Source of the DNA: an uncultured Cellvibrionaceae bacterium
Lineage (GTDB): Bacteria; Pseudomonadota; Gammaproteobacteria; Pseudomonadales; Cellvibrionaceae
Assembly (NCBI GenBank): GCA_964399955.1
Contig: CAYNST010000006.1
Location: forward strand, 7,103 to 59,557
Reading direction: 5' to 3'
Length of the DNA: 52,455 bases
Shown here: positions 4,485-22,469 of the stretch, piece after piece
Numbering within the stretch: the first letter of the stretch is position 1
Layout of the letters: every line of letters starts with the position of its first letter
Notes under the pieces: model-generated
Databases searched by the model: none
What the model saw: the letters and a program-made list of their open reading frames with translations, nothing else
Told to the model about the DNA's origin: nothing
Made by a program: the position numbers and the translations under genes

Positions 4485-4550
4485 TCACCACTTTGTTTGT
4501 ATGCACTTACTTCCGCCGAATCACCAACAAGCAAAGACTTAGGAGTGTCA

Positions 4551-4928
4551 ATGTCAGTCGCCAAATGGTTTTTTGTGCTCTCCGCGTTCAACGGCTTGCT
4601 GGCCGTGGCTTTGGGGGCCTTTGGCGCCCACGCCCTTAAAGCCAAGCTCACCGCCGCTATGTTGGGCGTGTGGCAGACGGCGGTGCAATACCAGTTTTAC
4701 CATCTACTGGCCCTGTTGCTGGTGGCCTTGCTCCTGCATCAGGGCTGGCGCTCTGTCTGGTTGGTGGCCAGTGGCTGGGCTTTTGTGGCCGGTCTGGTGC
4801 TGTTTTGCGGCAGCCTGTATTTATTGGCGCTGGGAGGGCCGCGCTGGCTGGGCCCCATCACTCCTCTGGGCGGGCTCACCTTCATGATCGGCTGGCTATG
4901 CCTGCTGGTCGCCGCGCTCAAGCTCTAG
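4551..4928 (+). CDS. DUF423 family small inner-membrane protein
   Basis: AGGAG lies 6 nt upstream of the ATG at 4551. Four TM helices with GAFGAHAL and YHLLALL motifs typical of DUF423/YgdD-like proteins. Confidence 0.7.
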   Translation: MSVAKWFFVLSAFNGLLAVALGAFGAHALKAKLTAAMLGVWQTAVQYQFYHLLALLLVALLLHQGWRSVWLVASGWAFVAGLVLFCGSLYLLALGGPRWLGPITPLGGLTFMIGWLCLLVAALKL

Positions 4929-4938
4929 CAGGCCCGGC

Positions 4939-5121
4939 ATGCTGGAATCCCACCGATGCTACTGCCCCTACTGCGGTGAAGTCATCGAACTGTTACTGGA
5001 CCTTTCCGTGCAAGCACAGACCTACGTGGAGGACTGTTTTGTTTGCTGCCGGCCAATGGTGGTTACGGTGGAAGTGGAGGGCGGCATTGCAGAGGTCAGA
5101 GTAGTCAGCGAGGACGAATAA
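4939..5121 (+). CDS. CPXCG-motif cysteine-rich mini-protein
   Basis: 60 aa, CYCPYCGE near the N-terminus and a later CFVCC, characteristic of the CPXCG zinc-ribbon family. Confidence 0.65.
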   Translation: MLESHRCYCPYCGEVIELLLDLSVQAQTYVEDCFVCCRPMVVTVEVEGGIAEVRVVSEDE

Positions 5122-5439
5122 CACGCTAGCTGTTAACTCTGGCCGCCGTCCACGCCAGACGGTAGCAAAAGCCACCGCAAGTGCATTGCCCTGCGTCCAG
5201 GCGGCTGCCAGCCCAACACCAAGGCATAGGCCGCACCGTTGCGCAAGGCGTAGCCAGTGCGCCTGTTACAGACTACTATTGAGCACTTGGCGCGGTCGCG
5301 GTACAGTAGGGAGCTGTGTGACCGGGTGCCAAATCACAGTTTTGGGCAGGAGCCACCACCTCTGTAGGCGACCTTTCAAACTTCTTACTACACTGGTCCC
5401 AACGCCGCATCAAACCCAGATACCGAACAGGATGTCCGT

Positions 5440-6093
5440 ATGTTTGCCCTTCTTGCCAGCGACGCAATAACGCCTTTCTTCCAGACTGTACTGTCCTTCC
5501 CCACGGTCATTTACAGCGGCTTGTTGGTGATTGTGCTGGTCTATTGGCTGAGCATGGCAATGGGCCTTGTGGATATGGACATGCTGGATGTAGACACACC
5601 CGATGCCGACGCAGGTGTGCTTGGTGGCCTGCTGCTGAAGCTGGGCCTTAATCATGTACCGGTAACGCTGGTAATCACCTTCATTGCTCTGATCGGCTGG
5701 GTGTTAAGCTTTTTTGCCAGTTTTTACCTTTTTCCGCTACTGTCGGCCCAGTTTGCCAAACTGCTGGTGGCGCTGCTGATCATGCCGGCCAGCGCCCTTG
5801 CCGCTGCCTGGGCCACCGCGTTCCTGATCCGCCCACTTCGGCCACTATTTCAAACCATGAACCGCGAAGTGCGGGTGGACCTGATAGGCCAAACCGCCAC
5901 TGTGCGCACAGGTGACGTCACCCCTGAGTTTGGTGAAGCCTGTATTGACGACGGCGGCGCCGGGTTGATCGTGCGGGTGCGTTCTTTTGATGGCCAAGGC
6001 TTCAAACGCGGTGACAAGGTGGTAATTTTAGAAAAAATAGACGGGCAAAGTGGCTATCGGGTGATGGCCGAAGCGGAATTTACAAAAGAATAA
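5440..6093 (+). CDS. NfeD-like membrane protein (YqiJ/DUF1449 type) with a C-terminal OB-fold
   Basis: N-terminal multi-TM region, then the soluble C-terminus GLIVRVRSFDGQGFKRGDKVVILEKIDGQSGYRVMAEAEF (NfeD-type beta barrel). Sits immediately upstream of a flotillin gene, as in the E. coli yqiJK pair. Confidence 0.75.
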   Translation: MFALLASDAITPFFQTVLSFPTVIYSGLLVIVLVYWLSMAMGLVDMDMLDVDTPDADAGVLGGLLLKLGLNHVPVTLVITFIALIGWVLSFFASFYLFPLLSAQFAKLLVALLIMPASALAAAWATAFLIRPLRPLFQTMNREVRVDLIGQTATVRTGDVTPEFGEACIDDGGAGLIVRVRSFDGQGFKRGDKVVILEKIDGQSGYRVMAEAEFTKE

Positions 6094-6118
6094 TTCATAA
6101 TCACACAAAGGAGTTTGT

Positions 6119-8053
6119 ATGGGCGAGTTGATGCCACAGCTGACGGTATTTGCAGTAGTCGTCGGTATTATCTTATTGACGCTGCTGGGTATACTTGCCG
6201 CCTTCAAGGCGTTTTATTTCAAGGTTGATCAAGGCACTGCGCTGATCAAAAACGACTTCAGTACCAAGCCCAAAGTGTTTTTTACCGGTGCCATGGTCTT
6301 GCCGGTGATACACAAAAAGGAGCTGATGCGCATTTCGCTGATCACCCTGGAGGTGGACCGGCGCGGCAAGGACGGCTTGATCTGTGCAGACAACATGCGC
6401 GCAGACATCACCGTCGCCTTCTATCTGCGGGTCAATGAAACGCCAGAAGATGTGTTGAAAGTTGCCAAATCTCTGGGTGCGGCCCGCGCCTCAGACCGCG
6501 ACGCGGTGTACGAGCTGTTCAATGCCAAGTTTTCCGAGGCATTGAAAACCGTGGGCAAGCAAATAGACTTTGTGAAGCTGTTTGAAGACCGCCAACACTT
6601 TCGCGACAAAATCATCCAGGTTATTGGCAATGACCTGAACGGTTACGTGCTTGAAGACGTTGCCATTGACTATCTGGAGCAAACCGCCAAATCTTCGCTG
6701 GACCCGCACAATATCCTCGACGCCCAGGGCATTCGCAAAATCACCGAGCTTACCGCAGCGCAGAACATTCAAACCAACAATTGGGAGCGCGACGAAGAGC
6801 TGGCCATTCGCAAAAAAAATGTGCAAACCGTGGAAGCCATGCTGGAGCTTGAGCGCCAGCAAAAAGACGCAGAAGCCCGGCAGAAGCGGGAGATAGCCAC
6901 CATCCAAGCCCGTGAAGAAGCCGAAACCAAACGCGTTCAGGAGGAGGAGCGCAAGCGCGCCGAGTCCGCCACCATTCAGGTGGACCAGGAGCTTAATGTA
7001 CTGCTGGAAAACCAGCAGCGGGAAATAGAAGTGGCCGGTCAGAACCGCCAGCGCGCCGTGGTCATCGAAAAAGAAAAGGTCACCCGCGCCCGCGACCTGG
7101 AAGTGGTTGCCCGTGAACGGGATGTGGAGCTGCAGCGCATTGAAGCCGAAAAAGCCGTGGAGATGGAGAAACGCGAAATAGCCAACGTCATTCGCGAGCG
7201 CATCACCGTAGATAAAACCGTGGCCGTGGAGGAAGAAAAGATCAAGGAAGTGCGGGAAGTCTCCGAGGCGGACCGCCGCAAGCAGATTCAGGTCATGGAA
7301 GCCGAAGCCCGCGCCGAAGAGCAAAAAGTCAAACAGGTCAAGGCGGCAGAGGCCGAAGAACTGTCCGCTCGCCACAAGGCAGTGGAGATCACCACCCTGG
7401 CGCAGGCGCGCCTGGACGCCTCCGCCAAAGAAGCCGATGCCAAGAAAAAAATGGCCGAGGGCACCCAGGCCGAACGCGCCGCCCCCGGTCTTGCGGATGC
7501 TCGTGTGTTGGAGGCCCGCGCGCAAGCACAGGAGAAAGAAGGTCTGGCTGAAGCGCGAGTCATCTCGGCCAAAGGCGGCGCAGACGCTGAAGTCATTGCC
7601 GCACGAGGGGACGCCGAAGCCCGAGCAGCCCGTGACCTGGGGCTGGCGGAAGCAGAAGTCACGCGGGAGAAATTCCGGGCGGAGGCCGACGGCCTGGTGG
7701 AGAAATTCACCGCCATGGGCAGCATGAGCAAAGACGCCCGCGCCCACGAGGAATTCCGCATGACTTTGGAGACGGCTTTGAAAGAGGCTTTGGCTTCTAT
7801 TGATGCAGGCAAGGAGATTGCCAAAGAAAACGCTGAGGTTTTGGCCACCGCGCTGGGCAAGGCCCATATTGACATCGTTGGCGGGGAGGCGCAGTTCTTT
7901 GATAACTTTGCCAAGTCCCTGTCCATCGGCAAGGCGGTTGACGGGCTGGCAGGAAAAAGCAGCACCATTGCCAACATCTTGCAAAACGTGCTGGCAATGA
8001 CCGGTGGCAACAACAACGCGTCCGACAAGGTCATCACCCCTGCGGACAAATAA
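6119..8053 (+). CDS. flotillin / SPFH (band 7) family protein, YqiK-like
   Basis: AAGGAG ribosome-binding site. N-terminal TM, SPFH domain, then a ~350-aa Glu/Ala/Arg/Lys-rich coiled coil (AEAEA repeats) typical of flotillins. Confidence 0.85.
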   Translation: MGELMPQLTVFAVVVGIILLTLLGILAAFKAFYFKVDQGTALIKNDFSTKPKVFFTGAMVLPVIHKKELMRISLITLEVDRRGKDGLICADNMRADITVAFYLRVNETPEDVLKVAKSLGAARASDRDAVYELFNAKFSEALKTVGKQIDFVKLFEDRQHFRDKIIQVIGNDLNGYVLEDVAIDYLEQTAKSSLDPHNILDAQGIRKITELTAAQNIQTNNWERDEELAIRKKNVQTVEAMLELERQQKDAEARQKREIATIQAREEAETKRVQEEERKRAESATIQVDQELNVLLENQQREIEVAGQNRQRAVVIEKEKVTRARDLEVVARERDVELQRIEAEKAVEMEKREIANVIRERITVDKTVAVEEEKIKEVREVSEADRRKQIQVMEAEARAEEQKVKQVKAAEAEELSARHKAVEITTLAQARLDASAKEADAKKKMAEGTQAERAAPGLADARVLEARAQAQEKEGLAEARVISAKGGADAEVIAARGDAEARAARDLGLAEAEVTREKFRAEADGLVEKFTAMGSMSKDARAHEEFRMTLETALKEALASIDAGKEIAKENAEVLATALGKAHIDIVGGEAQFFDNFAKSLSIGKAVDGLAGKSSTIANILQNVLAMTGGNNNASDKVITPADK

Positions 8054-8120
8054 ATTTTGGTTTTACCCGTAATTATTCAGCTCAAACCGTGACCTGAATA
8101 GTCACTTATACCATTTTGTT

Positions 8121-8150
8121 TGGCACTGCATGCATCAAGCCGCAGTGCCA
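8121..8150 (+). terminator. GC-rich hairpin after the flotillin gene (9-bp perfect stem tggcactgc/gcagtgcca, 12-nt loop)
   Basis: Perfect inverted repeat 68 nt after the stop codon. No clear U-tract, so intrinsic termination is uncertain. Confidence 0.35.
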
Positions 8151-8193
8151 TTACAAGCGCCGGGGTCCCGGCAAGGCTACTGTCGCTGTTTTC

Positions 8194-8212
8194 GCTCAGG
8201 CGTCGCCTGAGC
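8194..8212. promoter_or_regulatory. 19-bp palindrome gctcaggcg-t-cgcctgagc upstream of the DUF2059 gene
   Basis: Perfect 9-bp arms around a central T, 40 nt upstream of the start codon. Candidate operator or small hairpin. Confidence 0.25.
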
Positions 8213-8252
8213 CGAGTTCACGCAGGAGCACCCTCACCTACAAGGAGTCATC

Positions 8253-8750
8253 ATGAAATATTTAATCATCGCAGTACTGTCCTCTTTCATCGCCTTTGCT
8301 CAGGCCGACGATCAAAGCAAACACAAAGCCATCGACAAGCTCATGCAGATCACCAACGTCGAGTCCACCATTGATGGGCTTTACGAGCAAATGGAGGCGA
8401 TGATGCAGAGCATGGGCGACCAGATGGGCGTGGGGCCTGCCGAGCAGCCCATCCTGGACGAATATCACTCCAGCATGCGCATGATCATGCAAACGGAGAT
8501 GAGCTGGGAACAAATGAAGCAGCCGATGACTGCGCTCTACGCCAAGCATTTCTCCGAAGAAGAAATCAACGATATGATCGCCTTTTACCAGAGCGAGACC
8601 GGACGCAAAACCATCGAGAAAATGCCGGTGGTGATGCAGGAGTCCATGGCCATTTCGCAGCAACTGGTGCAAAACGCCCTGCCCAAAATTCAGCAGGTTA
8701 CCGAACAGATGCAAAATGACCTGGCAAAAGTCCGCGGGGAAAAACAATAA
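8253..8750 (+). CDS. DUF2059 family periplasmic protein
   Basis: AAGGAG ribosome-binding site, signal peptide MKYLIIAVLSSFIAFAQA, and the hallmark HFSEEEINDMIAFYQSETGRKTIEKMP. Confidence 0.8.
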   Translation: MKYLIIAVLSSFIAFAQADDQSKHKAIDKLMQITNVESTIDGLYEQMEAMMQSMGDQMGVGPAEQPILDEYHSSMRMIMQTEMSWEQMKQPMTALYAKHFSEEEINDMIAFYQSETGRKTIEKMPVVMQESMAISQQLVQNALPKIQQVTEQMQNDLAKVRGEKQ

Positions 8751-8763
8751 CAGCGGGTAACTT

Positions 8764-8800
8764 GTCGGCCTGCGTCCAAGTTTGCCGACAGGGGTTTTTG
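8764..8800 (+). terminator. probable intrinsic terminator (stem tgtcggc/gccgaca followed by GGGGTTTTTGG)
   Basis: Stem-loop plus T5 tract 14 nt after the DUF2059 stop. Confidence 0.45.
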
Positions 8801-8924
8801 GCCCAGGCAAAACTGGACGCGCACCGAACAGCGGCGCAATGAGCGGAATGGTTCTAACGCCTGTGGCAGTGCCACCGCTGTTCACCCCACCCCTCATAGC
8901 CAACTAAAAACCAAGGGAAATCGC

Positions 8925-11900
8925 ATGGCGGTGATTGATCCAGACAGCACTCAGGTTGACCAGGCCGTTGCCGAGGGCGGTGCCTATGAGGTTATCACCA
9001 AGCGCTTGACCGAGCAGGGCACTGCGCTCAGAGCCTGCGCCGCCGCCCTGAACCAGGCGCGGCAGCAGGAGTTTGGCAGCTCGGAGATGGCCGTGATTGC
9101 CCGGGTGCGGGTGCGCACCGAGAACAACTGCTCGCCCCGGGATATAGTGCAGGTGGGCGAGCACCTGCTGTTTGGCTACAACGTATTCATCGGGCTTAAA
9201 TCCGAAACAGAAGTGGCGGATGTTCTGGCGCTGTTCAAGTTGCAGGTGCAGGGCGACGAAACGGACATTTTGCCCGTGCCGCAAGCGGATACCTTTTTAG
9301 ACGAGCCCCAGTTCGTCAAGGATTTTCAGGAACTTTACCGCTACTACAAACAAACCCGTCTGCTGCAGTTGAGAGTAAAAGACGGCAAATTGCTGGCGGC
9401 ATTCCAGATTGGCGAGCGGCTCACGGACACCCGCGTGTTTCGCTGGAGCATTTCCGCCGACGGCAAGGTCATTCGCTACATCGACAACCGAGGCGAGCGG
9501 GATATTCAACTGCCATCCGCCTTTGATTTTGAATGGCATAAAACCAGTCGCGATCAGGTCGTCAACGGCAAACATCCGCATGTCAATATCCTTGACGAGC
9601 TGTTTGTTGAAACGGTAGGCGGAGATCTGACTGTCAAGGTAGAAAACAATACCGCCTCCGGCCGCGGTATTTACCATGAGCCGGTGGACGACGCCACTCA
9701 GTCCATTGACGACGCCGAATTCCATTACGCTGAAGTAGGCAGTCTGATTCTGTTGAAGATACTGCCTTACCGCGAAACCGCCTGGCGCTATCTGGTGTTC
9801 AACAAACTTACTCAGGAAGTGCGGCGCATAGACGCCATTGGCTCTTCCTGTGTGCAGCTGCCCGAGGATCACGGCATTGTCTTCCCCGGTGGTTATTACC
9901 TGCAGACCGGCCAGTACAAAACCTTTGATGAGTCCAGCGCCGAGATGCTGTTCAAGCGGGTCATCCGCTCGCCTAACGGCGAGGACGTACTTTACGTATT
10001 TTATGAGCCAACCAGCGGCACGGTAGGTCTGTTTGCCTACAACCTGATCAAAAAAAACCTGCAAAACCCGCTGTATGGTGACGGCTACGCCCTGGCGGAC
10101 GATGGCACGCTGGTTATTTTTGTGGCCCAGGAAGAACCCACCCGGGTGCACCCGATGCAGGTTTGGCGCACACCGTTCTGCAGCGATGAATTTGCCAGTC
10201 TGGAGCCGCCCAGGCAAAACTTTTTTGGCCGTATCGGCAATGCCGAGCTGGTGCGGGGAATCTCTGACCTGTACGCGGTGGGCCGCATAATCGACAATCA
10301 GTCGGTGACCCTGCGCCTCTACGAAGAATTGCAGCGCGTGGCGCTGAAGGTGTTTGACGATCACTATTGGATAGAGGCAGAAGAAACCGCCGATGCTCCC
10401 GGTTTATTAAGAACCATCGCTCAAACCGCTGAGCTGGCCATCGACGAATTTGAAAAAGTACAAAGCATCCGCCAGCAGTCGCAGCGTGCGCTGGACGCGG
10501 CCAGCACCGAGCAGGGCCTGCTGCTTGACAGTGTCCGCGCTGCCGGCTGGGATACGGCCGAGGAGTATGTACTGGCTCTTGACCGCATCCGCAACCAGCG
10601 CGGTCACCTGGCAACCATCAGACAATACCGCTACATCAATACCAGCAAAATTGACGCACTGGATGCTGTATTGCTGGAGGCCCAGCATCACCTGAGTGCG
10701 CGTACGCTGGAGTTTCTGTCTGACGAGCAGGCGCTCTTGCCCTATCTGGAAAAAATCGAGTACTTCAATCAGGCCATCGCCGCCACGGAGACGGTTGCAG
10801 AGCTTTTGCCTTTGAAGGAGGAAATACAGTTAACCGCCGGCGGCCTTGATCTGCTGTCAGAACTGTTGTCCACCTTGAAAGCGGGGGATGCCACCGAGCG
10901 CACCCGAATCATCGATGCCATCTCCGAAGTTTACGCCCGGCTCAATCAAAGCAAGGCGCAGGCCCAGCACCGGCAGAACCAAATGGGCTCGCGCGAAGCC
11001 GTGGCCCAGTTCTCTGCCCAGTTCAAATTGTTTTCCCAAAGCATCACTAACGCTTTGGGCCAGGCCAATACGCCCGAGGCCTGCGATGAGCAAATGTCAC
11101 GTTTGCTGATTCAGCTTGAGGAGCTGGAAGGCCAGTTTGCCGACCACGAACAATTCCTAAGCGACATAGTTACCAAACGCGAAGAAGTGTTTGACGTGTT
11201 TGAGGCGCACAAGCAGCGGCTGCTGGACGAGCGCGGTCGGCGGGCGCAGGCCATTTTTGACGCCGGGCAGCGGGTACTGGGCAGCATTGAGCGCCGCTCG
11301 CAAAAATTCATCGAGCCGGACCCGCTCAACACTTTTTTTGCCGCCGACCCTCTGGTGCTGAAGATCCGCGAGTTTGTGGAGCAATTGCACCAGTTGGACA
11401 ACAGCGTCAAGGCCGACGACTTGGATGCGCGCCTGAAAGGGCTGCGCGACCAAGCCTCCCGCGCGCTGCGAGACAAGCGCGAGCTGTTTGAAGAGGGCGG
11501 TGCGGTGGCCCGCCTGGGGCCGCGCCACCGCTTCAACGTCAACACCCAGGAGCTGGATCTTACCTTGCTGGCCCGCAACGGCCAGTTGGTTTATCACCTC
11601 ACCGGCACCCAATATTATCAACCGGTTGACGAGCCGGAGCTGGAACGGCTGAAACCCTTCTGGAGTGTTGCCCTGGCGTCCGAAAGCGCGGAGGTTTACC
11701 GCGCCGAGTTTCTGGCCGATGAAATACTGCACGCCGCCCGGGCGCAGCGCGACGGCCTGAGCCTGGACGGCTTGCACCAGGCCCTGTTGCAGGGCGCGCA
11801 ACTGGACAAACTGGTCCGCGATTTTGCTGCGCCGCGATATCAGGAGGGGTATGAAAAAGGCATTCACGACCACGATGCCGCGCTTATTCTGAAGGCGCTT

Positions 11901-14180
11901 CTGCCCGCGTTGCAGCAAGTGGACCTGCTGCGCTTTGAGCCGGCTGCCCGCGCTTTGGCGCAGGTGTTCTGGTGCGCAATCAGCGGCCCCGCAGCAGCAC
12001 CGTCCGGCAGTTGGCTGGAGCGGGCACAATCCGCTTTGGAGTTAAAGGGCATGTTTGGCGATGCTGCGGCGGCGGACGGCCTGGCCCAGGAGATAGACAC
12101 GACGCTACAGGTTTTTTTGGATCAACACCCGCTACCGGTGCAAGCGGCGGAGATACAGCAGGCGGCGGCCTATCTGGTGGAGGAGTTGGGCCGTGAGCAG
12201 CTGGAGTTTGTGAGCAGTCACTATGCGCAGGAGCTTGCGGATACGCTGGTCTCGTCTGTAGGCGCAACCCGCTGGCGGCGTTTGCAGGCGACGCTTGAGT
12301 CACTGGAGTCCTCACCCGCGCTCGCCTGGCAGCTCTGCAGCAACTGGCTGCAGGGACTGGTGCAGAACAAAGGCCTGCAGCAGCTTGCGCGCTACCTTCC
12401 CGAGGCGTGTGCCTTACTCACTACCGGGCCGCGTCTATCCCGCCGCGCAACAGAGGTGGACCTGGATCTTACTATCAGTGGACTGATGGGGCAGCACGCC
12501 ACGCTTGCGGATCAACAGTTGCGCATCTCCGTTGACGGCTTCCTGGCCCGCCTGCAACGCCACAGGCAGGAGTTTGTGCCGGCTTACAAACACTACCTGC
12601 AATTGCGCCACGAACTGCTTGAGCGCCAGCGCAGGGCGTTGAGGCTGCACGAGTTCAAGGCTCGCCCTCTCAGCTCCTTTGTGCGCAACCGGCTGATCAA
12701 CGAGGCCTATTTGCCCATCATTGGCGACAACTTCGCCAAGCAGATGGGCACGGCCGGTGAGACCAAGCGCTCGGACCTGATGGGACTGCTGATGCTGATC
12801 TCGCCGCCCGGCTACGGCAAAACCACGCTGATGGAATACGTCGCGCACCGCTTGGGCCTGATTTTCATGAAAATCAACTGCCCCTCGCTGGGCCACGAGG
12901 TGACCTCCCTCGACCCGGCCAAAGCGCCCAACAGCACGGCGCAACAGGAGTTGATCAAGCTGAACCTGGCGCTGGAGATGGGCGACAACGTGATGCTTTA
13001 CCTGGACGACATTCAGCACACGGATCCAGAGTTCCTGCAGAAGTTTATCTCACTGTGTGACGGCACCCGGCGCATAGAAGGCGTGTGGCAGGGGCAGAGT
13101 AAAACCTACGACCTGCGTGGCAGAAAGTTCTGCGTGGTCATGGCGGGCAACCCCTATACCGAGTCTGGCGCTGTATTCAAGATTCCGGACATGCTGGCCA
13201 ACCGTGCCGATATCTACAACCTGGGCGATATCCTGGGCGGCATGGAAGAGCCCTTTGCCTTGAGCTACATCGAAAACGGTCTCACCTCCAACGCCGTGCT
13301 GGCACCGCTGGCAACGCGGGACATTGAAGACGTCTACCGGTTTGTGAAAATGGCGCAGGGTGAATCTGTCGCCACCACGGATATGAGCCACGCTTACTCC
13401 AGTGCGGAGGCGAGTGAAATTGTCGGCGTTCTGCAAAAGCTGTTTGCCATTCGCGATGTGGTGCTCAAGGTCAACCAGCAGTATATTCAGTCCGCAGCTC
13501 AGGCGGACCGCTACCGCGTAGAGCCGCCCTTCCGCCTGCAGGGCAGCTACCGCAACATGAACAAGATGGCAGAGAAGGTGCAGGCGGTGATGAACGCGGC
13601 AGAGCTTGAGCAGTTAATTGCCGACCACTATGTGGGCGAAGCGCAGCTTCTGACCACCGGTGCGGAAGAAAACCTGCTGAAGCTGGGTGAGCTGCGCGGC
13701 AGCCTAAGCCAGCAGCAACAGGCGCGCTGGCAGCAAATTAAAGCCGATTTTTTACGCAACAAAGCCATGGGTGGGGACGAGGGCGATGCCGGCCAAAAAA
13801 TAGCCGCGCAGCTGACAGATCTGGTCGCGGGCCTGCAGCACCTTGCAACAAGTGCGGCCAGTTGGACGCAATCCAAAGACCGTACAGAACAGAATCAGGC
13901 CAGTATGCTCACGCAGTTGAAGCAGATTGTTGACGCCGCCCGGCCAGAGGTCAAGGTCATCAACCAGCCGGTTCCCGGGCTGGACACCTTGCTGCAGAAG
14001 CTCACCGACTCCATTGAAAACAGTCTGTACCCCATTGTGCGCAGCATGGACAAAAAGCTGGAGATAGACCTGCGCACCCATTACAAAATGAAAGATATCT
14101 CCCAGCAGTTGGCGGATATCGAACAAAAAATTCAACAGGAACTGGCCGAGCAACGTAGGACTCCACCTGAGGCAAACTGA
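8925..14180 (+). CDS. giant (1751 aa) protein with a C-terminal AAA_5 (MoxR/dynein-related) ATPase domain; function unknown
   Basis: Single uninterrupted ORF with an AAGGGA ribosome-binding site. Walker A LISPPGYGKTTL (~nt 12800), Walker B VMLYLDDIQH (~12996) and VVMAGNPYTESG...ANRADIY (~13140) match the AAA_5 pattern (hhhDEIN / hhh-NP). The N-terminal ~450 aa is non-repetitive. The central ~800 aa is Leu/Gln/Ala/Arg-rich and predicted helical. Confidence 0.85.
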   Translation: MAVIDPDSTQVDQAVAEGGAYEVITKRLTEQGTALRACAAALNQARQQEFGSSEMAVIARVRVRTENNCSPRDIVQVGEHLLFGYNVFIGLKSETEVADVLALFKLQVQGDETDILPVPQADTFLDEPQFVKDFQELYRYYKQTRLLQLRVKDGKLLAAFQIGERLTDTRVFRWSISADGKVIRYIDNRGERDIQLPSAFDFEWHKTSRDQVVNGKHPHVNILDELFVETVGGDLTVKVENNTASGRGIYHEPVDDATQSIDDAEFHYAEVGSLILLKILPYRETAWRYLVFNKLTQEVRRIDAIGSSCVQLPEDHGIVFPGGYYLQTGQYKTFDESSAEMLFKRVIRSPNGEDVLYVFYEPTSGTVGLFAYNLIKKNLQNPLYGDGYALADDGTLVIFVAQEEPTRVHPMQVWRTPFCSDEFASLEPPRQNFFGRIGNAELVRGISDLYAVGRIIDNQSVTLRLYEELQRVALKVFDDHYWIEAEETADAPGLLRTIAQTAELAIDEFEKVQSIRQQSQRALDAASTEQGLLLDSVRAAGWDTAEEYVLALDRIRNQRGHLATIRQYRYINTSKIDALDAVLLEAQHHLSARTLEFLSDEQALLPYLEKIEYFNQAIAATETVAELLPLKEEIQLTAGGLDLLSELLSTLKAGDATERTRIIDAISEVYARLNQSKAQAQHRQNQMGSREAVAQFSAQFKLFSQSITNALGQANTPEACDEQMSRLLIQLEELEGQFADHEQFLSDIVTKREEVFDVFEAHKQRLLDERGRRAQAIFDAGQRVLGSIERRSQKFIEPDPLNTFFAADPLVLKIREFVEQLHQLDNSVKADDLDARLKGLRDQASRALRDKRELFEEGGAVARLGPRHRFNVNTQELDLTLLARNGQLVYHLTGTQYYQPVDEPELERLKPFWSVALASESAEVYRAEFLADEILHAARAQRDGLSLDGLHQALLQGAQLDKLVRDFAAPRYQEGYEKGIHDHDAALILKALLPALQQVDLLRFEPAARALAQVFWCAISGPAAAPSGSWLERAQSALELKGMFGDAAAADGLAQEIDTTLQVFLDQHPLPVQAAEIQQAAAYLVEELGREQLEFVSSHYAQELADTLVSSVGATRWRRLQATLESLESSPALAWQLCSNWLQGLVQNKGLQQLARYLPEACALLTTGPRLSRRATEVDLDLTISGLMGQHATLADQQLRISVDGFLARLQRHRQEFVPAYKHYLQLRHELLERQRRALRLHEFKARPLSSFVRNRLINEAYLPIIGDNFAKQMGTAGETKRSDLMGLLMLISPPGYGKTTLMEYVAHRLGLIFMKINCPSLGHEVTSLDPAKAPNSTAQQELIKLNLALEMGDNVMLYLDDIQHTDPEFLQKFISLCDGTRRIEGVWQGQSKTYDLRGRKFCVVMAGNPYTESGAVFKIPDMLANRADIYNLGDILGGMEEPFALSYIENGLTSNAVLAPLATRDIEDVYRFVKMAQGESVATTDMSHAYSSAEASEIVGVLQKLFAIRDVVLKVNQQYIQSAAQADRYRVEPPFRLQGSYRNMNKMAEKVQAVMNAAELEQLIADHYVGEAQLLTTGAEENLLKLGELRGSLSQQQQARWQQIKADFLRNKAMGGDEGDAGQKIAAQLTDLVAGLQHLATSAASWTQSKDRTEQNQASMLTQLKQIVDAARPEVKVINQPVPGLDTLLQKLTDSIENSLYPIVRSMDKKLEIDLRTHYKMKDISQQLADIEQKIQQELAEQRRTPPEAN

Positions 14181-14219
14181 ATAATCACACCGAAACCTGA
14201 CCGAGGACGGCCCCGAGTT

Positions 14220-14780
14220 ATGAAGCAAGTTCGCCGCAGTGGCATTAGGTTGATTTTGTATCTGCTCGGACTGATGGTGGTTGTGCACATTGTCAACATC
14301 CTGAGCGGCGGCACCCTGGTCCAACTGGGCATACTGCCGCGCGACCCCTCCAGCCTGGTGTTCATCTTCACCGCACCCTTCATCCACGCCAACTGGATGC
14401 ATCTGCTCAACAATTTGTTGGGGTTGGCGGTGTTCAGCGGCTTTTGTCTGCTGAAGGGGGTGCAGTTCTACCTGCGCTCCAGTTTGTTCATCATTGCAGC
14501 AAGTGGGCTGTTGCTGTGGCTGTTTGGCCGGGCGGGCCTGCACGTGGGCGCCAGCGGCTGGATCTTTGGCCTGTGGAGCCTGACCATTGCTCTGGCGGTA
14601 TTCGAGCGCAGTCTGCTGAACATTGTTGTGGCTTTGGTGGTGGTGATCTTCTACGGCGGCATGGCCTTCGGCATGATGCCGAGCAACCCACTGGTGTCTT
14701 TTGAAGGGCATATCTTTGGTGCGCTGGCCGGAGTGGTAGCAGCGGCTTATTACGGCAGGCGTCGCAGGCCCAGGCGCTGA
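14220..14780 (+). CDS. rhomboid family intramembrane serine protease
   Basis: Six TM segments; HANWMHLLNNL, the catalytic GASGWIFGL (GxSG) and the downstream FEGHIFGALAG His motif. Lies 39 nt after the giant ORF on the same strand. Confidence 0.8.
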   Translation: MKQVRRSGIRLILYLLGLMVVVHIVNILSGGTLVQLGILPRDPSSLVFIFTAPFIHANWMHLLNNLLGLAVFSGFCLLKGVQFYLRSSLFIIAASGLLLWLFGRAGLHVGASGWIFGLWSLTIALAVFERSLLNIVVALVVVIFYGGMAFGMMPSNPLVSFEGHIFGALAGVVAAAYYGRRRRPRR

Positions 14781-14804
14781 AACTGTCGTAACTGTCGGGG
14801 GGGG

Positions 14805-14830
14805 GGCAAGGCGGGGCGGCCCGCCTTGCC
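14805..14830. terminator. bidirectional hairpin terminator (11-bp perfect GC stem ggcaaggcggg/cccgccttgcc, 4-nt loop), preceded by a G10 tract at 14797-14806
   Basis: Lies between the convergent rhomboid gene (stop 14780) and a minus-strand small gene (stop 14837). Confidence 0.55.
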
Positions 14831-14836
14831 AGTGTA

Positions 14837-15040
14837 CTACTCGGCCTGTTCGGCTTCGCTGGTTTCTTCCACGGCTTCTGGCGCTGGCTTGGGTTCGGGC
14901 TGCTTCAGCAGTCCTTCTGCCTTCAGTACTTCAACTTTCTTCTCACCGTTGACCGGCTTCTTCTTGGCGTCTTTGACTGCGTAACGGCCATCTTCACGTT
15001 TGAAGATGCTGTACTCGGCAGTTTGTTTGATCTTCTTCAT
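14837..15040 (-). CDS. small Lys/Glu-rich basic protein (hypothetical, 67 aa)
   Basis: AAGGAAAGG ribosome-binding site upstream on the minus strand. MKKIKQTAEYSIFKREDGRYAVKDAKKKPVNGEKK... has protein-like composition. Divergent from hcp. Confidence 0.5.
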   Translation of the reverse strand: MKKIKQTAEYSIFKREDGRYAVKDAKKKPVNGEKKVEVLKAEGLLKQPEPKPAPEAVEETSEAEQAE

Positions 15041-15369
15041 GTGCCTTTCCTTGTGTGTGGGGATAATGGGTACGCCTCTTTGGGCGCCCGGCAGTTTACG
15101 AGTGACGCGGGCAAAAATCCAGAACTTAGCTTACTAATTGTACAATCCGGCAGATTTTTCTTGATCGGGCGTTTGGCTTACAAAACTTGAGGTGAATAGC
15201 TGCAGTTTCGATATTGCAAAACGGTCCGCTTTCACTTATCGTTGCCTGGCCGTTCGGGAACGCCGAAGGGTCTCGCTGAAAGGGCTTTTAGCGAGTATGT
15301 CCTGTCGATACCATCCAGATGGTCATACACCGGAAGCCCGTCAGAACACAAATACTAAGGAGCGATCAA

Positions 15370-15852
15370 ATGGCTATTTATATTGAATACGCAGGTATAC
15401 AAGGAAACGTAACTGCAACCGGTTTTGCGAATCACATCAAAGTCATGTCTGTTCATTTTGGTGTAGGCCGCGGCATCTCCATGGAAGCTGGCAACATGGC
15501 CAACCGTGAAGCCACCCGTCCCAGCCTCAGCGAAATCACCTTCAGCAAGCTTGCTGATATCTCCTCAACCTCTCTGTTCAAAGAATCTGTAACCGGCGCC
15601 GCAGGCAAGCTGGTCAAGATCAAGTTTGTTCAGACTGGTGCAGAGCAGGTTGTGCAGTTCATGGACTACGAACTGGAAGATTGCCTGGTCAGTGGTTACT
15701 CCATCTCTGCCGACGGCGATGGTGACCCGATCGAGACCATCACCTTGAGCTTCGCCAAAATCATGGTTAACTACCACGACTACGACAAAGCCAACGCTGG
15801 CAAAAGCCCACAGCGCGTCGGTTACGATCTTACTGCTGCCAAACCTCTGTAG
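15370..15852 (+). CDS. hcp: type VI secretion tube protein Hcp (TssD)
   Basis: TAAGGAG ribosome-binding site 7 nt upstream. The 160-aa product aligns along its full length with Hcp1 of P. aeruginosa (MAIYIEYAGIQG..., ITFSKLADISST..., ETITLSFAKIMVNY). Immediately upstream of vgrG. Confidence 0.9.
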   Translation: MAIYIEYAGIQGNVTATGFANHIKVMSVHFGVGRGISMEAGNMANREATRPSLSEITFSKLADISSTSLFKESVTGAAGKLVKIKFVQTGAEQVVQFMDYELEDCLVSGYSISADGDGDPIETITLSFAKIMVNYHDYDKANAGKSPQRVGYDLTAAKPL

Positions 15853-16017: not shown

Positions 16018-17901
16018 ATGGGTCAGCTCACACAGGAACATCGCCTGATATCAGTTACCGACTTTGGCCTGGGCAAAGACACGTTTGTCATTACCGGTCT
16101 GGACGGCAGCGAGCACATCTCCGAACTCTTCGAGTTTCAGCTGGACCTCCTTTCTCCAGCACTGGCCATATCGCCGGATAAAGTGATTGGCAAGGCGGCA
16201 ACGGTCGTACTGCACACCCAGCAAGAGCGCGTCTTCCACGGCCTGGTCAAGTCTTTCGGTATCGGCGAGATGGGGCCGCACAATCACCGGCAGTACCGCC
16301 TAACCCTGGTGCCCTGGCTCTGGTTCTTGTCCAAGACGCAAAACTGTCGGGTGTTTCAGAAAAAGAACGTCAAGGAAATTGTCAGTCAAATCTTTGCCGA
16401 CCACAATTTCACCGATTTTGAATTCAAAGCAACCGGTGGGCAAAAGCGCGCATACTGCGTGCAGTACAATGAAAGCGATCTGCATTTTGTCAGTCGTTTA
16501 CTGGAAGAAGAAGGCATAGCCTATTTTTTCCAACACAGTCGCGACAAACACAACCTGATTCTGACGGACAAGTCCGAAACCTTCGAAGAAGTCCCGGAAA
16601 CCAACCTGGAGTTTTCCAAGGGCTCGGCACCCCACGCACAGATCACCGAGTGGCAGCGCCTGCACGAGTTTCGCAAAGGGCAGTGGACGCTTAACGACTA
16701 CGCCTACGAAGAGCCCAACAAAAACCTGCTGGCGCTGGAAAAAACCACCAGCCGTTTCCAAAACAATCAGCGCTTCGAGCACTACGAGTATCCCGGCCAC
16801 TACAGCAGCGCCGGGCGTGAGCGCGCCACAACCCGCCTGCAGGCAGAAGAAACCTTGCGCAACCGCGTGCGCGGCACCAGCGCATGCAGCAGCTTCTGTG
16901 CCGCCGGCCAGTTCCGCCTGGCCAAGCACGACACCGCAGCCGAACAGGGCAAATACGCGTTGGTGAGCGTGCATCACACCGCCACCGACAGCAGTTTTTA
17001 CAGCGGTGAGGCCGGCCAGAGTGGCTACAGTAATCGGTTTGTGTGCATTCCGGCCGACGTCACCTATCGGCCGGAGCCGCGACATCTGAAGCCGCAAATG
17101 CCCGGCCCACAATCTGCTGTTGTAGTCGGGCCCGCAGGAGAAGAGATCTATCTGGATGAGCTGGGCCGCATTAAGCTGCAGTTTCATTGGGACAGGGAAG
17201 GGCAAAAGAACGAGCACAGCTCCTGTTTTGTGCGGGTCATGCAGAGTTGGGCCGGCAATGGTTGGGGCAGTCACTTCATCCCGCGCATTGGTCATGAAGT
17301 AATTGTCAGCTTTCTGGACGGGGACCCGGACCGCCCACTGGTAACCGGCTCGGTCTACAACGGTAAAAACCGGCCGGCGGATTTCTCCAAATCGCAAAGC
17401 GGCATCAAGTCCCGCTCTACCAAGGGTGGCAACGCGCAGAACTTCAACCAACTGCGCTTTGATGACAAAAAAGGCGACGAAGAAATCTACCTGCACGCCG
17501 AAAAAAACCTGGCGCTGCACGTTGAAAACGACGAGACACGCACAGTAGAAAACGACCGCTTCAAAACGGTGCAGGGCAATCAGAGCGAAGAAGTCGGCAA
17601 AAACAAAAGCATTCGCGTGCAGGGCGAGCACAGCGAAGCCATCAGCAAGAACATGACCATTGTCATCGACAAAGACCTGTCGGAGACGGTGGGTGGGTCC
17701 TATACCGAAACGGTCGTCAAGGACTCCATGCATACGGCCAAAACCATTACCTTCAAGGCCGAGAAAGAAATAGTTCTGCAAACCGGCTCTGCCAAAATAG
17801 TTTTGAAAAACAATGGTGATATAACCATCAGCGGGAAAAACATATCCGTAAAAGGATCCGGCAACGTGGTCTTGAAAGGCAGCAAGGTCACCGCCAACTA
17901 A
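16018..17901 (+). CDS. vgrG: type VI secretion spike protein VgrG (TssI), short form without a C-terminal effector extension
   Basis: 627 aa. gp27-like N-terminus (FEFQLDLLS..., YRLTLVPWLWFLSKTQNCRVFQ), a gp5 OB-fold region and a C-terminal beta-helix of repeats (ETVGGSYTETVVKDSMHTAKTITFKAEKEIVLQTGSAKIVLK). Confidence 0.92.
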   Translation: MGQLTQEHRLISVTDFGLGKDTFVITGLDGSEHISELFEFQLDLLSPALAISPDKVIGKAATVVLHTQQERVFHGLVKSFGIGEMGPHNHRQYRLTLVPWLWFLSKTQNCRVFQKKNVKEIVSQIFADHNFTDFEFKATGGQKRAYCVQYNESDLHFVSRLLEEEGIAYFFQHSRDKHNLILTDKSETFEEVPETNLEFSKGSAPHAQITEWQRLHEFRKGQWTLNDYAYEEPNKNLLALEKTTSRFQNNQRFEHYEYPGHYSSAGRERATTRLQAEETLRNRVRGTSACSSFCAAGQFRLAKHDTAAEQGKYALVSVHHTATDSSFYSGEAGQSGYSNRFVCIPADVTYRPEPRHLKPQMPGPQSAVVVGPAGEEIYLDELGRIKLQFHWDREGQKNEHSSCFVRVMQSWAGNGWGSHFIPRIGHEVIVSFLDGDPDRPLVTGSVYNGKNRPADFSKSQSGIKSRSTKGGNAQNFNQLRFDDKKGDEEIYLHAEKNLALHVENDETRTVENDRFKTVQGNQSEEVGKNKSIRVQGEHSEAISKNMTIVIDKDLSETVGGSYTETVVKDSMHTAKTITFKAEKEIVLQTGSAKIVLKNNGDITISGKNISVKGSGNVVLKGSKVTAN

Positions 17902-18287: not shown

Positions 18288-19721
18288 ATGTTCAAACCTG
18301 CTATGGATAATCCAGTTAAATTCAATCCTTGCGTACTGCCCCGCTTACGGGCCCGCGTCTATCTGGCGGTGCTGTTGACAGGCCTGATGGCCCTCTTCAG
18401 CGCGGACTTGATGGCACAGGCGCCCAGGGTGACCCCCGCCGACCTGCAGCACATGGATGACGAGCTACAAAAGCGGCTGGACACCTTTTACCGCGAGTGG
18501 CTCAAGAAGGCATCGGCGGAACAGAGGGGCAATCTGCAGACGGTAACAGCCGGTTTGACTGTGCATGAACCGGAACAAGCCCTGCGCCTGGGGTTGCAGC
18601 TGCGCGCCAACCTGGAGGCTTTGCATCAGGCGGCAGACGATGATCTGTATCGCCAGGCCCTGGCGCTGCTCTATGCCATCAATGATACGGCAACGGTCAG
18701 GCGCATCACCGACTTCCTCAACCAGCAGGGTAGCCCTGCGGCGCGGTCCAACAACTATATGCTGCTGGCGGGTTATTATTACGCGCGGCAAAACTGGGCG
18801 GGTGTGCGAGCCGCACTGCAGCGGGTGGACAGCAAATTGCTGCCGGCCGAGCAACAGGGCTATGCCGCACTGCTGCACGGCTACGCACTGCAGGCGTTGA
18901 AGCAGCATCGCGAAGCCGTGAGCTATTATCGCCACCTTCCGGAGGACTCGCCCTTTTTCGCCTACGCCAAGTTGAACGAAGGTACAGCTTATTTGCGCCA
19001 GGGCTGGTGGTCAGAGGCTTTTCTGGAGTTTGAGCAAGCCATCAAGAGCGCGCCCAAAGACAGCGAACTCAAAGATCGTGTGCTCGTCACCCTGGGCTTT
19101 GCGCAGATTCATCACGAATTCTACCGCCTTGCCCGGGCCACCCTGCGCAAGGTAAGCCTGTCCAGCCGGCACGCGCCCAAGGCTCAACTGGGTCTGGGCC
19201 TGGCCGCAACTCACCAGCAGGACTTGCGTCCGGCGCTTAACCTTTTTTTGCACCTGCTGGAAAGCAACAAAGTGGACGCCAGCGTTGATGAGGCCTACTT
19301 GCTGGCGGCCCACGTTTACGAAGAGCTGCAGCAAATGCCCCTGGCGGCAGAGGCTTATCGTCAAGCTATCGCCTTTTATCAGCGCCGCCTGGACGAAACC
19401 GACCGCGCCCGCGCACGTTTACAAGGCACCGGCCAGCCACTGGAGCCATTGCTTGCCGAACTGGAAGCCCAGTCAGAAGAATTCTACGCCACTGCGCAAC
19501 CCATTCCCGAATACCTGCTGGACAATCACCGGCGTTTGCAGGCAATGCAGAACTTGGCGCGAGAGGCGCAATTGAAGGTCACGCTGGGTGACTTGCTGCA
19601 GGGCACCGAGCAGCTACTGCGGTCGCTTGCGCTGGAGTCCATCGAGGTTCGGCAAAGCCTGTTGCACAGCTACATGAGTCAAGCCAAATACCGTCTGGCA
19701 ACCCTTTATGACAATGATTAA
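18288..19721 (+). CDS. secreted TPR-like repeat protein (477 aa)
   Basis: N-terminal hydrophobic segment RVYLAVLLTGLMALFSADLMAQAP, then helical-repeat/TPR-like composition (Ala/Leu/Tyr/Gln periodicity). Its stop overlaps the next gene's start. Confidence 0.55.
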   Translation: MFKPAMDNPVKFNPCVLPRLRARVYLAVLLTGLMALFSADLMAQAPRVTPADLQHMDDELQKRLDTFYREWLKKASAEQRGNLQTVTAGLTVHEPEQALRLGLQLRANLEALHQAADDDLYRQALALLYAINDTATVRRITDFLNQQGSPAARSNNYMLLAGYYYARQNWAGVRAALQRVDSKLLPAEQQGYAALLHGYALQALKQHREAVSYYRHLPEDSPFFAYAKLNEGTAYLRQGWWSEAFLEFEQAIKSAPKDSELKDRVLVTLGFAQIHHEFYRLARATLRKVSLSSRHAPKAQLGLGLAATHQQDLRPALNLFLHLLESNKVDASVDEAYLLAAHVYEELQQMPLAAEAYRQAIAFYQRRLDETDRARARLQGTGQPLEPLLAELEAQSEEFYATAQPIPEYLLDNHRRLQAMQNLAREAQLKVTLGDLLQGTEQLLRSLALESIEVRQSLLHSYMSQAKYRLATLYDND

Positions 19722-22458: not shown

Positions 22459-22469
22459 GAACCCATCCT

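Follow-up and report, generated by a model that had tools for sequence, protein, structure and literature searches.

An abbreviated variant of the flotillin-AAA+ bac operon with a rhomboid gene and a DUF2059 insertion in an uncultured Cellvibrionaceae bacterium

Results

A gene for a giant AAA+ ATPase of 1751 amino acids (aa) and its neighbours were analyzed in a stretch of 52,455 nucleotides (nt) from an uncultured Cellvibrionaceae bacterium (assembly GCA_964399955.1, contig CAYNST010000006.1, positions 7,103 to 59,557 of the forward strand), and this whole stretch is called the window in the following. The locus is an abbreviated variant of the bac operon of Pseudomonas aeruginosa, i.e., of the flotillin-AAA+ operons associated with the phage shock protein (PSP) system, and it additionally has a rhomboid gene and an inserted DUF2059 gene. 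It is rather likely that it forms a membrane-stress module, in which the AAA+ protein would remodel a flotillin scaffold or the clients of this scaffold. Family membership, domain anatomy, motif conservation and synteny are the observed basis of this reading. The features of the locus are as follows (positions in the window).

5440..6093, + strand: NfeD-like membrane protein of the YqiJ-YuaF type, 217 aa; orthologue of BacC (PA3730), hhalign match to YqiJ
6119..8053, + strand: flotillin of the YqiK type, 644 aa; orthologue of BacD (PA3729), hhalign match to YqiK
8253..8750, + strand: DUF2059 protein, 165 aa; Pfam DUF2059, E=2.9e-22
8925..14180, + strand: giant AAA+ ATPase, 1751 aa; orthologue of BacE (PA3728/PA14_16190), Pfam DUF3686 + DUF7902 + AAA/AAA_5
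9027..10367, + strand: DUF3686 domain of the giant ATPase, aa 35-481; Pfam PF12458, E=3.2e-204; predicted beta-propeller with an N-terminal helix before it
10368..12776, + strand: helical region of about 800 aa, aa 482-1284; includes DUF7902 and the central helical domain (about aa 880-1250)
10728-10979, + strand: DUF7902, aa 602-685; Pfam, E=3.7e-26
12777..13724, + strand: single AAA+ module, aa ~1285-1600; K1299, D1361-D1362, N1409, R1427 and R1543 of GSYR
14220..14780, + strand: minimal rhomboid intramembrane serine protease, 186 aa; Pfam Rhomboid, E=1.5e-18
14805..14830, no strand: GC-rich hairpin with a perfect stem of 11 bp and a GCGG loop; inverted repeat, 100% complementary
14837..15040, - strand: convergent lysine-rich open reading frame (ORF), 67 aa (MKKIKQTAEYSIFKREDGRY...), just past the terminal hairpin

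Family membership and anatomy of the giant ATPase

At least 4,980 homologues of the giant protein were found. The best of them are 60-68% identical over the full length, have 1750-1830 aa and share the same Pfam architecture; their database names are 'DNA repair ATPase' or 'AAA family ATPase'. When aa 1-700 were used in an exhaustive search, 914 clusters at 50% identity were obtained, the complete members of which have 1600-2036 aa. The hosts of such proteins include Pseudomonas, Lysobacter, Providencia, many marine gammaproteobacteria and far more distant lineages. The identity to the protein encoded by a locus of P. paraeruginosa (L047) is 59% over residues 6-1732. The gene order at that locus is DUF2170, PspA, NfeD-like, flotillin-like, giant ATPase, PLD family, an ORF of 225 aa and recJ, and thus it corresponds to PA3732-PA3725. 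Judged by sequence, the giant ATPase is the orthologue of P. aeruginosa BacE (PA3728/PA14_16190). The initial annotation, which was made from the DNA letters and their translations, had not recognized the architecture as a named family. This view has to be given up, as the combination DUF3686 + DUF7902 + AAA has been named BacE (PMC10948618) and has been described (PMC11237479). Although the family thus has a name, no homology of the whole protein to a family of characterized function was found.

The ATPase motifs that had been noted near the C-terminus are all present, i.e., Walker A SPPGYGKTT (aa 1293-1301), Walker B LYLDDIQ (aa 1358-1364) and VVMAGNP (aa 1404-1410). Conservation was analyzed with an alignment of the window protein and 67 full-length representatives with 32-54% identity (68 sequences). 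The AAA module was the best-conserved part of the protein, and seven residues were invariant in all 68 sequences (K1299, T1300, D1361, D1362, N1409, R1427 and R1543). The giant protein is almost certainly an active ATPase. The Walker B motif has an invariant Asp-Asp (D1361-D1362, nt 13005-13010) and not the usual Asp-Glu. Such a motif is known in some helicases of superfamily 3 (SF3).

The sole AAA model that covered the entire core was Pfam AAA_5 (25.3 bits with the whole protein, 29.0 bits with the isolated region, cut-off 22; profile positions 2-125 of 139); the AAA model also matched, weakly. The top neighbour of the AAA module in a Foldseek search was Skd3, which has a repeat domain and a single AAA+ module, and in the structural comparison ClpB-NBD2, Hsp101 and Skd3 scored level with MoxR-type ATPases. 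The earlier assignment to the AAA_5/MoxR/dynein class is supported as far as AAA_5 is concerned, while MoxR/dynein is a candidate placement. A partner with a VWA domain was found neither among the neighbours in the window nor in the six distant loci with Pfam annotation that are described below.

The N-domain of about 450 aa, which had been described as non-repetitive, is present but not featureless. It matched DUF3686 over the full length of the model (E=3.2e-204). In the AlphaFold2 (AF2) model of the N-terminal part, which had a predicted local distance difference test (pLDDT) score of 79.6, a helix is followed by an all-beta region at aa 56-415 and then by helical bundles. Foldseek matched the beta region to propellers of the WD40 type, e.g., DCAF1 (E=1.3e-6), Sec12 and the clathrin terminal domain, and the DUF3686 domain is predicted to be a beta-propeller. 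The region between the N-domain and the AAA module is predicted to form helices and has a high content of L, A, Q, R and E, in agreement with the helical region of about 800 aa in the initial annotation. In the AF2 model of the C-terminal part (pLDDT 77.1), a confidently modelled helical domain (about aa 880-1250) is followed by a single AAA+ module (about aa 1285-1600) and by a helical tail at the C-terminus. The fold comparison that had been proposed for the N-terminal part thus revealed the propeller, while for the central helical domain the search returned generic spectrin, syntaxin and designed helical bundles and nothing more specific. No membrane-spanning hydrophobic segment was found in the giant protein. 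It is presumably cytoplasmic, because it has neither a transmembrane (TM) segment nor a signal peptide.

NfeD-like and flotillin-like proteins and synteny among relatives

The two proteins encoded furthest upstream had been annotated as NfeD-like and as a flotillin; the second name holds, and the first one is probable. They had no Pfam, NCBIfam or PDB sequence match above threshold, a profile-versus-PDB comparison also gave nothing, and their identities are based on profile-profile comparison with E. coli YqiK and YqiJ. The flotillin-like profile matched YqiK with a probability of 99.9% (hhalign, E=2.6e-31) over 405 columns within 13-470, including the SPFH domain. In this protein, one TM-like segment (aa 1-36) and the SPFH domain are followed by a long coiled coil rich in E and A and by a flotillin-like region at the C-terminus; Pfam Band_7 is recorded for distant orthologues. 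The NfeD-like profile matched YqiJ with a probability of 86.8% (E=4.3e-6), and the match to Pfam NfeD was under threshold (E=0.18). Three hydrophobic segments, which correspond to about 3 TM segments, precede a soluble domain at the C-terminus of this protein.

Synteny was analyzed in 80 genome loci encoding relatives of the giant protein. The upstream DNA was sufficient for scoring in 70 of them, 71 were scored for an adjacent rhomboid gene, and 61 had complete flanks. In 68 of the 70 loci, the giant gene was immediately preceded, with no change of strand, by an NfeD-like gene and then a flotillin-like gene. This is in accordance with the earlier proposal that a soluble giant ATPase belongs together with proteins of a membrane scaffold. 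The two exceptions, L014 and L016, are metagenome-assembled genomes of Methyloprofundus, in which neither of these two genes precedes the giant gene.

Further genes were frequent members of the cluster. At its head, DUF2170 (CesT/Tir) was present in 58 and PspA/IM30 in 59 of the 80 loci, and at its tail a PLD-family gene with a single HKD motif was present in 34. The gene recJ was adjacent in 18 of the 80 loci, which are of the Pseudomonas type. The arrangements in the 61 loci with complete flanks were as follows.

CesT-PspA-NfeD-Flot-Giant-Rhomboid-PLD: 20/61 loci, the commonest form, e.g., in strains of Stutzerimonas stutzeri and Aquipseudomonas alcaligenes (L034, L059)
CesT-PspA-NfeD-Flot-Giant: 13/61 loci
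CesT-PspA-NfeD-Flot-Giant-Rhomboid: 9/61 loci
CesT-PspA-NfeD-Flot-Giant-PLD: 9/61 loci
NfeD-Flot-Giant: 4/61 loci
NfeD-Flot-Giant-PLD: 2/61 loci
NfeD-Flot-Giant-Rhomboid-PLD: 2/61 loci
PspA-NfeD-Flot-Giant: 1/61 loci
NfeD-Flot-Giant-Rhomboid, the core arrangement of the window: 1/61 loci (Providencia heimbachae, L074)

A tblastn search with the P. paraeruginosa proteins revealed no DUF2170, PspA or PLD gene anywhere in the 52-kb window. The closest relatives are L002 and L003 (67-68% identity). Compared with these, the window lacks CesT/Tir and PspA and has the DUF2059 gene in addition. L003 is the closest relative with downstream sequence, and, unlike the window, it has no rhomboid gene.

Six distant members with 27-34% identity were also included. 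The core was kept in the same arrangement in all six, i.e., a protein of about 205 aa, a Band_7 protein of about 650-710 aa and the giant protein. Accessory genes were TelA near three of them and CesT/Tir-PspA, a gene with a beta-lactamase fold and a rhomboid gene in one each. TelA, which belongs to a toxic-anion-resistance family, was found beside or near the core in L163, L165/L166, L167 and L080, which suggests that it is another recurring envelope-stress accessory.

The rhomboid gene

The rhomboid gene had been placed 39 nt downstream of the giant gene on the same strand, with intact GxSG and His motifs, and the analysis bears this out. The Pfam Rhomboid model matched with 67.8 bits (cut-off 22.6, E=1.5e-18), and about six hydrophobic (TM) segments are present; the N-terminus is taken to be cytosolic, and the C-terminal tail is rich in Arg. 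The active-site motif is GASG, i.e., G110-A-S112-G113, and the catalytic residues S112 and H164 are intact. Among 117 relatives, H56, H61 and N65 (HxxxxHxxxN), G110, S112, G113 and H164 are conserved to at least 95%. A classification as rhombosortase (TIGR03902) was rejected, with 31.7 bits against an NCBIfam equivalog cut-off of 84.

A rhomboid gene was located directly 3' of the giant gene and on the same strand in 33 of the 71 loci; it was elsewhere in the locus in five and absent in 33. In the adjacent cases the gap was 17-135 nt, with one exception. The synteny of both genes, which the initial annotation had named as a check, was thus found in about half of the loci. A reciprocal analysis was made with 80 metagenomic loci retrieved by the rhomboid query, 66 of which had enough upstream DNA. 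The C-terminus of a giant protein was encoded directly upstream of the rhomboid gene in 26 of these and elsewhere in one, and none was within reach in 39. Unlinked rhomboids had heterogeneous contexts, e.g., groEL upstream and a pseudouridine-synthase-like gene downstream in nine loci, and a conserved partner for the ATPase-unlinked rhomboids was not found. In a neighbour-joining tree, ATPase-linked and unlinked rhomboids interleave.

The position of the rhomboid gene also varied. In L064 and L072 it precedes the NfeD-like gene, and in L015 and L023 it has a divergent orientation. In the distant lineage L162 a rhomboid gene precedes the core, and its product is 31% identical over 104 aa to that of the window. 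This different rhomboid argues for repeated recruitment. Taken together, the rhomboid linkage is real, recurrent and facultative in both directions, and it probably arose more than once. In the metagenomic loci L105 and L106 (also L100 and L146) a rhomboid gene is directly followed by a PLD-family gene with no giant gene upstream, which hints that rhomboid and PLD may travel as a pair.

The DUF2059 gene and transcription signals

Pfam DUF2059 verified the annotation of the gene between the flotillin-like and the giant gene, and the N-terminus of the protein resembles a signal peptide. A DUF2059 gene, which the initial annotation had listed among the upstream neighbours, was found in 0 of the 80 related loci. 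The GC content is 0.512, compared with 0.546-0.584 for the neighbouring genes, and the gene is followed by a hairpin and T5 (about 8761-8799). The DUF2059 gene is a window-specific insertion outside the conserved module. In the distant relative L168 a gene with a beta-lactamase fold (6662-7981) has exactly the position of the gene for the periplasmic DUF2059 protein in the window, and the spacer between the flotillin-like and the giant gene appears to be an insertion hot-spot.

The intergenic gaps from the NfeD-like gene via the flotillin-like, DUF2059 and giant genes to the rhomboid gene are 25, 199, 174 and 39 nt. Weak hairpins are present in both long spacers around the DUF2059 gene. A terminator scan found no terminator-like site in the gap of 39 nt, and therefore the giant and the rhomboid gene probably share one transcript in the window.

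The rhomboid gene is followed by a G10 homopolymer (14797-14806) right before the terminal hairpin. The initial annotation had regarded this hairpin as strong and as the end of the unit. The perfect stem of 11 bp exists, but it has no T-tract, the terminator scan called no canonical terminator after the rhomboid gene, and the fold of its context is unexceptional (70 nt, minimum free energy -33.4 kcal/mol, z=-1.4). A second hairpin fold was likewise unexceptional (z=-0.77). The hairpin is nevertheless plausibly the end of the transcription unit, because it is located between the rhomboid stop codon and the convergent ORF of 67 aa.

A search for sigma-54 -24/-12 elements with up to two mismatches found none on the + strand of the leader (5122-5439), and across the whole window sigma-54-like matches were fewer than expected by chance. 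No Rfam family matched 4400-15400 at E values up to 0.1. The leader of the NfeD-like gene, which has 318 nt, is preceded on the + strand by a candidate small Cys-rich ORF with a CPYCG motif (4939-5121), which was read by eye. Upstream of this ORF are a DUF423 gene (4497-4928) and a gene for a TlyA/FtsJ-like methyltransferase (3696-4484).

Relation to known systems

In P. aeruginosa, PA3729-PA3732 were named the 'biofilm-associated cluster' by Macé et al. (2008). Biofilm formation, swarming, rhamnolipid production and virulence were impaired in a PA3731 mutant, and osmotic shock induces PA3731 (PMC2587700). In P. aeruginosa PA14, bacABCDEF was shown by reverse transcription PCR to be one operon, which includes PA14_16190 (BacE) and PA14_16200 (BacF), and in a bacA mutant BacB-F were up 6-13-fold (PMC10948618). 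PA3728-PA3732 were up-regulated in all phage-infected samples (PMC12041424), and membrane-active staphylococcal phenol-soluble modulins induce PA3731 (10.1101/2023.01.29.526047). In addition, PA3728 recurs in literature lists of genes mutated in cystic-fibrosis isolates.

Orthologous giant, bacC and bacD genes are common to the window and bacABCDEF (PA3732-PA3727), and their order and strand agree. In contrast to that operon, it lacks bacA (DUF2170), bacB (PspA) and bacF (PLD), and DUF2059 is inserted between the bacD-like and the bacE-like gene. The rhomboid gene lies where P. aeruginosa has bacF, and the P. aeruginosa operon has no rhomboid gene. A sigma-54 site like that proposed for bacA was also not found.

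Ravi et al. (2024) described a 'Betapropeller+Coiled-coil+AAA-ATPase' beside genes for Band-7/flotillin and YqiJ/YuaF proteins, assigned the operon type to membrane dynamics and found abbreviated operons without PspA to be widespread (PMC11237479). All three core proteins of the window have the same domain architectures, and as CesT/Tir and PspA are missing the locus is placed in the published 'abbreviated' form. These authors give PLD as a variable extra, whereas the window and many of its relatives have a rhomboid gene. The regulation of PspA assemblies that lack an associated AAA+ ATPase is an acknowledged open question (PMC11237479).

More distant likenesses exist. The gene pair and its order also occur in E. 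coli (YqiJ-YqiK) and Bacillus subtilis (YuaF-FloT), and YqiK and YqiJ are homologues of the window proteins. However, no giant ATPase gene adjoins E. coli yqiJK, and the window proteins are too divergent for the Pfam models Band_7, Flot and NfeD. The triad of SPFH scaffold, rhomboid and AAA+ protein is also found in the mitochondrial SPY complex (SLP2/STOML2-PARL-YME1L) with CLPB/Skd3 (PMC10818064) and is paralleled by YqgP-FtsH (PMC7231995). This likeness is by analogy and does not imply orthology; moreover, the AAA+ protein of the window has no protease domain and no TM segment, and its type of rhomboid is optional. The giant protein shares an AAA_5 match above threshold with the MoxR/AAA_5 ATPases (CbbQ, NorQ, RavA). 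In contrast to these it is 5-6 times larger, has a propeller and helical arms as well as the DD Walker B motif, and has no VWA partner in the neighbourhood.

The operon type is thus already known, and the recurrent rhomboid association is the element that was not found in the literature. The word 'rhomboid' is absent from the text of PMC11237479 and from its one supplementary file that is searchable as text. No searchable paper combines flotillin, rhomboid, NfeD and AAA, and a 2025 rhomboid review mentions no flotillin, SPFH, NfeD or PspA. The literature search found DUF3686 in no paper and BacE/PA14_16190 in the 2024 paper only (PMC10948618); for PA3728 it found list entries and the statement on phage induction only.

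Discussion

The near-obligate linkage with flotillin-like and NfeD-like genes, the frequent linkage with PspA, PLD, rhomboid and TelA genes, the domain anatomy with an intact ATPase site, and the co-transcription and stress induction of the P. aeruginosa orthologues lead us to infer a membrane-stress module. Contact with the flotillin, oligomeric state, substrate, direction of remodelling and the role of the rhomboid are conceived as follows. The flotillin, anchored by its N-terminus and assisted by the NfeD-like protein, would assemble an oligomeric scaffold of the SPFH type at stressed or specialized patches of the inner membrane, on its cytoplasmic side. The giant protein would dock on this scaffold or on its clients through the beta-propeller and the long helical arms. 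Its single intact AAA+ module, presumably as a ring oligomer, would then remodel, disassemble or extract proteins in an ATP-dependent manner, and the targets may be the scaffold, its PspA partner or trapped clients. Where a rhomboid is present, it would add intramembrane cleavage of clients in the same microdomain.

Several points weigh against the membrane-stress module. The window has no PspA gene, so that a role of the PSP type needs a PspA encoded elsewhere or may not apply. Because the Walker B motif has DD instead of DE, the hydrolysis kinetics may be atypical. In the structural comparison a Hsp100-D2-like and a MoxR-like placement of the AAA module fit equally, and thus both a threading unfoldase and a non-threading remodeller are conceivable. 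It is uncertain whether the flotillin-like and the giant gene are on one transcript in the window, because DUF2059 and two hairpin-bearing spacers of about 175-200 nt intervene, and a sigma-70 scan found no promoter-like site upstream of the NfeD-like or the giant gene. The literature search also found no report on interaction, localization, ATPase activity or biochemistry of a BacE-type ATPase. The initial annotation had suggested an unexplored machine, and with respect to the biochemical mechanism this is indeed so.

An alternative puts the rhomboid at the centre of a quality-control machine, in which the giant protein would unfold or extract membrane proteins for rhomboid cleavage in a flotillin-delimited microdomain. 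It has parallels in SLP2-PARL-YME1L, YqgP-FtsH and Derlin-p97 (precedents in PMC7231995 and PMC10818064), and the catalytic dyad is conserved. The direct 3' adjacency in 33/71 loci and in 26/66 reciprocal loci, the seven-gene form with the rhomboid gene between the giant and the PLD gene as the commonest one (20/61), the other operon positions in L064, L072, L015 and L023 and the different rhomboid in L162 are also in its favour. However, about half of the loci have no rhomboid gene. Among them are L003, the closest relative with downstream sequence, and P. aeruginosa, whose operon is expressed and has phenotypes. Furthermore, 39 of the 66 close rhomboid relatives have no giant gene in reach and are found in unrelated contexts, and linked and unlinked rhomboids interleave in the tree. 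In view of these absences, unlinked relatives and the interleaved tree the rhomboid cannot be the core partner, and a rhomboid-centred machine is unlikely. The initial annotation, which had stressed the pairing with the rhomboid, had inverted the emphasis: the rhomboid is optional (33/71; 26/66), while the NfeD-like and flotillin-like proteins are near-obligate (68/70). A quite improbable explanation is that the locus acts in anti-phage defence or abortive infection, with an NTPase that senses through its propeller and triggers membrane or nucleic-acid damage via PLD or rhomboid effectors. The up-regulation of PA3728-PA3732 in all phage-infected samples (PMC12041424), the single-HKD PLD gene in 34/80 loci, the variable accessory genes and the T6SS (type VI secretion system) conflict locus that the window locus abuts would fit such a role. 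But operons of the PspA type are classically induced by phages as a general membrane-stress response, and the phenotypes of P. aeruginosa mutants concern biofilm, swarming and virulence (PMC2587700). The core is very highly conserved and syntenic across orders (52-68% identity over the full length) and recJ-adjacent in Pseudomonas, unlike patchy defence islands. A PADLOC search with five proteins also gave no significant hit; the best ones, IetA (E=0.0061 over 29 residues) and HamB (E=0.016), are not credible.

The database label 'DNA repair ATPase' has its origin in source names and in the description of Pfam DUF3686, and faint RuvB-like P-loop matches and recJ nearby in Pseudomonas seem to agree with it. 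The similarity to RuvB, however, comprises about 40 residues around the P-loop only, with E>0.005, Pfam and NCBIfam find no DNA-binding, nuclease or helicase domain in the 1751 aa, and no paper was found that uses or supports the label. In addition, the invariant neighbours encode membrane proteins and recJ adjacency is limited to Pseudomonas-type loci (18/80), and a function in DNA repair is very improbable. The chance that the locus is an accessory of the neighbouring T6SS is practically negligible. The genes for Hcp and VgrG begin about 540 nt past the rhomboid gene and are followed by a full cluster, and some P. aeruginosa datasets show PA3729 and PA3731 changing along with T6SS genes. Nevertheless, the link has to be rejected, because none of the 80 related loci has Hcp or VgrG nearby; moreover, the convergent small ORF and the hairpin separate both units.

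The membrane-stress module may have an extension in loci with a rhomboid gene. By analogy, flotillin, NfeD-like protein, giant ATPase and rhomboid could be a bacterial counterpart of the mitochondrial SPFH-rhomboid-AAA hub (SPY with CLPB/Skd3), an idea that we regard as doubtful. In such a counterpart, damaged or regulatory membrane proteins would be confined by a cage of flotillin and cut in their TM segments by the rhomboid, and the propeller-armed AAA+ protein would extract the fragments or recycle the cage. If this were true, the repeated, independent recruitment of different rhomboids would reflect a functional coupling that has not yet been described for bacteria.

The BacE-type giants are a very large and highly conserved family, for which no biochemical characterization was found and which is mislabelled as 'DNA repair ATPase' in databases. 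The giant protein is the only ATP-consuming component tied to the bacterial flotillin/NfeD scaffold and, mostly, to the ESCRT-III-like PspA, which makes it the obvious candidate to power the remodelling of flotillin or PspA. To our knowledge, a physiological context has been described for hardly any bacterial rhomboid. The recurrent linkage offers one that can be tested, and the mitochondrial hub is a suggestive parallel. The practical value of the window itself is modest, i.e., a corrected annotation and a further variant of an operon that is already known.

The neighbouring type VI secretion cluster

A complete T6SS cluster is located directly downstream of the locus, at 15319-47390 of the window, and it includes TssG and TssF. 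The following parts were assigned.

15319-15852: Hcp
16018-17901: VgrG
18288-23051: three TPR proteins
24131-26767, - strand: ClpV
30239-31678 and 31746-33239, - strand: two tandem TssC/VipB sheath paralogues
39704-43240: TssM/IcmF
44820-47390: Ser/Thr kinase fused to an FGE-sulfatase-like domain, at the end of the cluster

Tandem duplicated TssC genes are unusual. The bac genes vary jointly with T6SS genes in several P. aeruginosa datasets, which is curious in view of the T6SS beside the locus in the window, although this adjacency was seen at no other locus. In one P. aeruginosa dataset PA3729 was down together with hsiA2, hsiC2 and vgrG4 at elevated temperature, and in another PA3731 was up when staphylococcal peptides triggered T6SS firing (10.1101/2023.01.29.526047).

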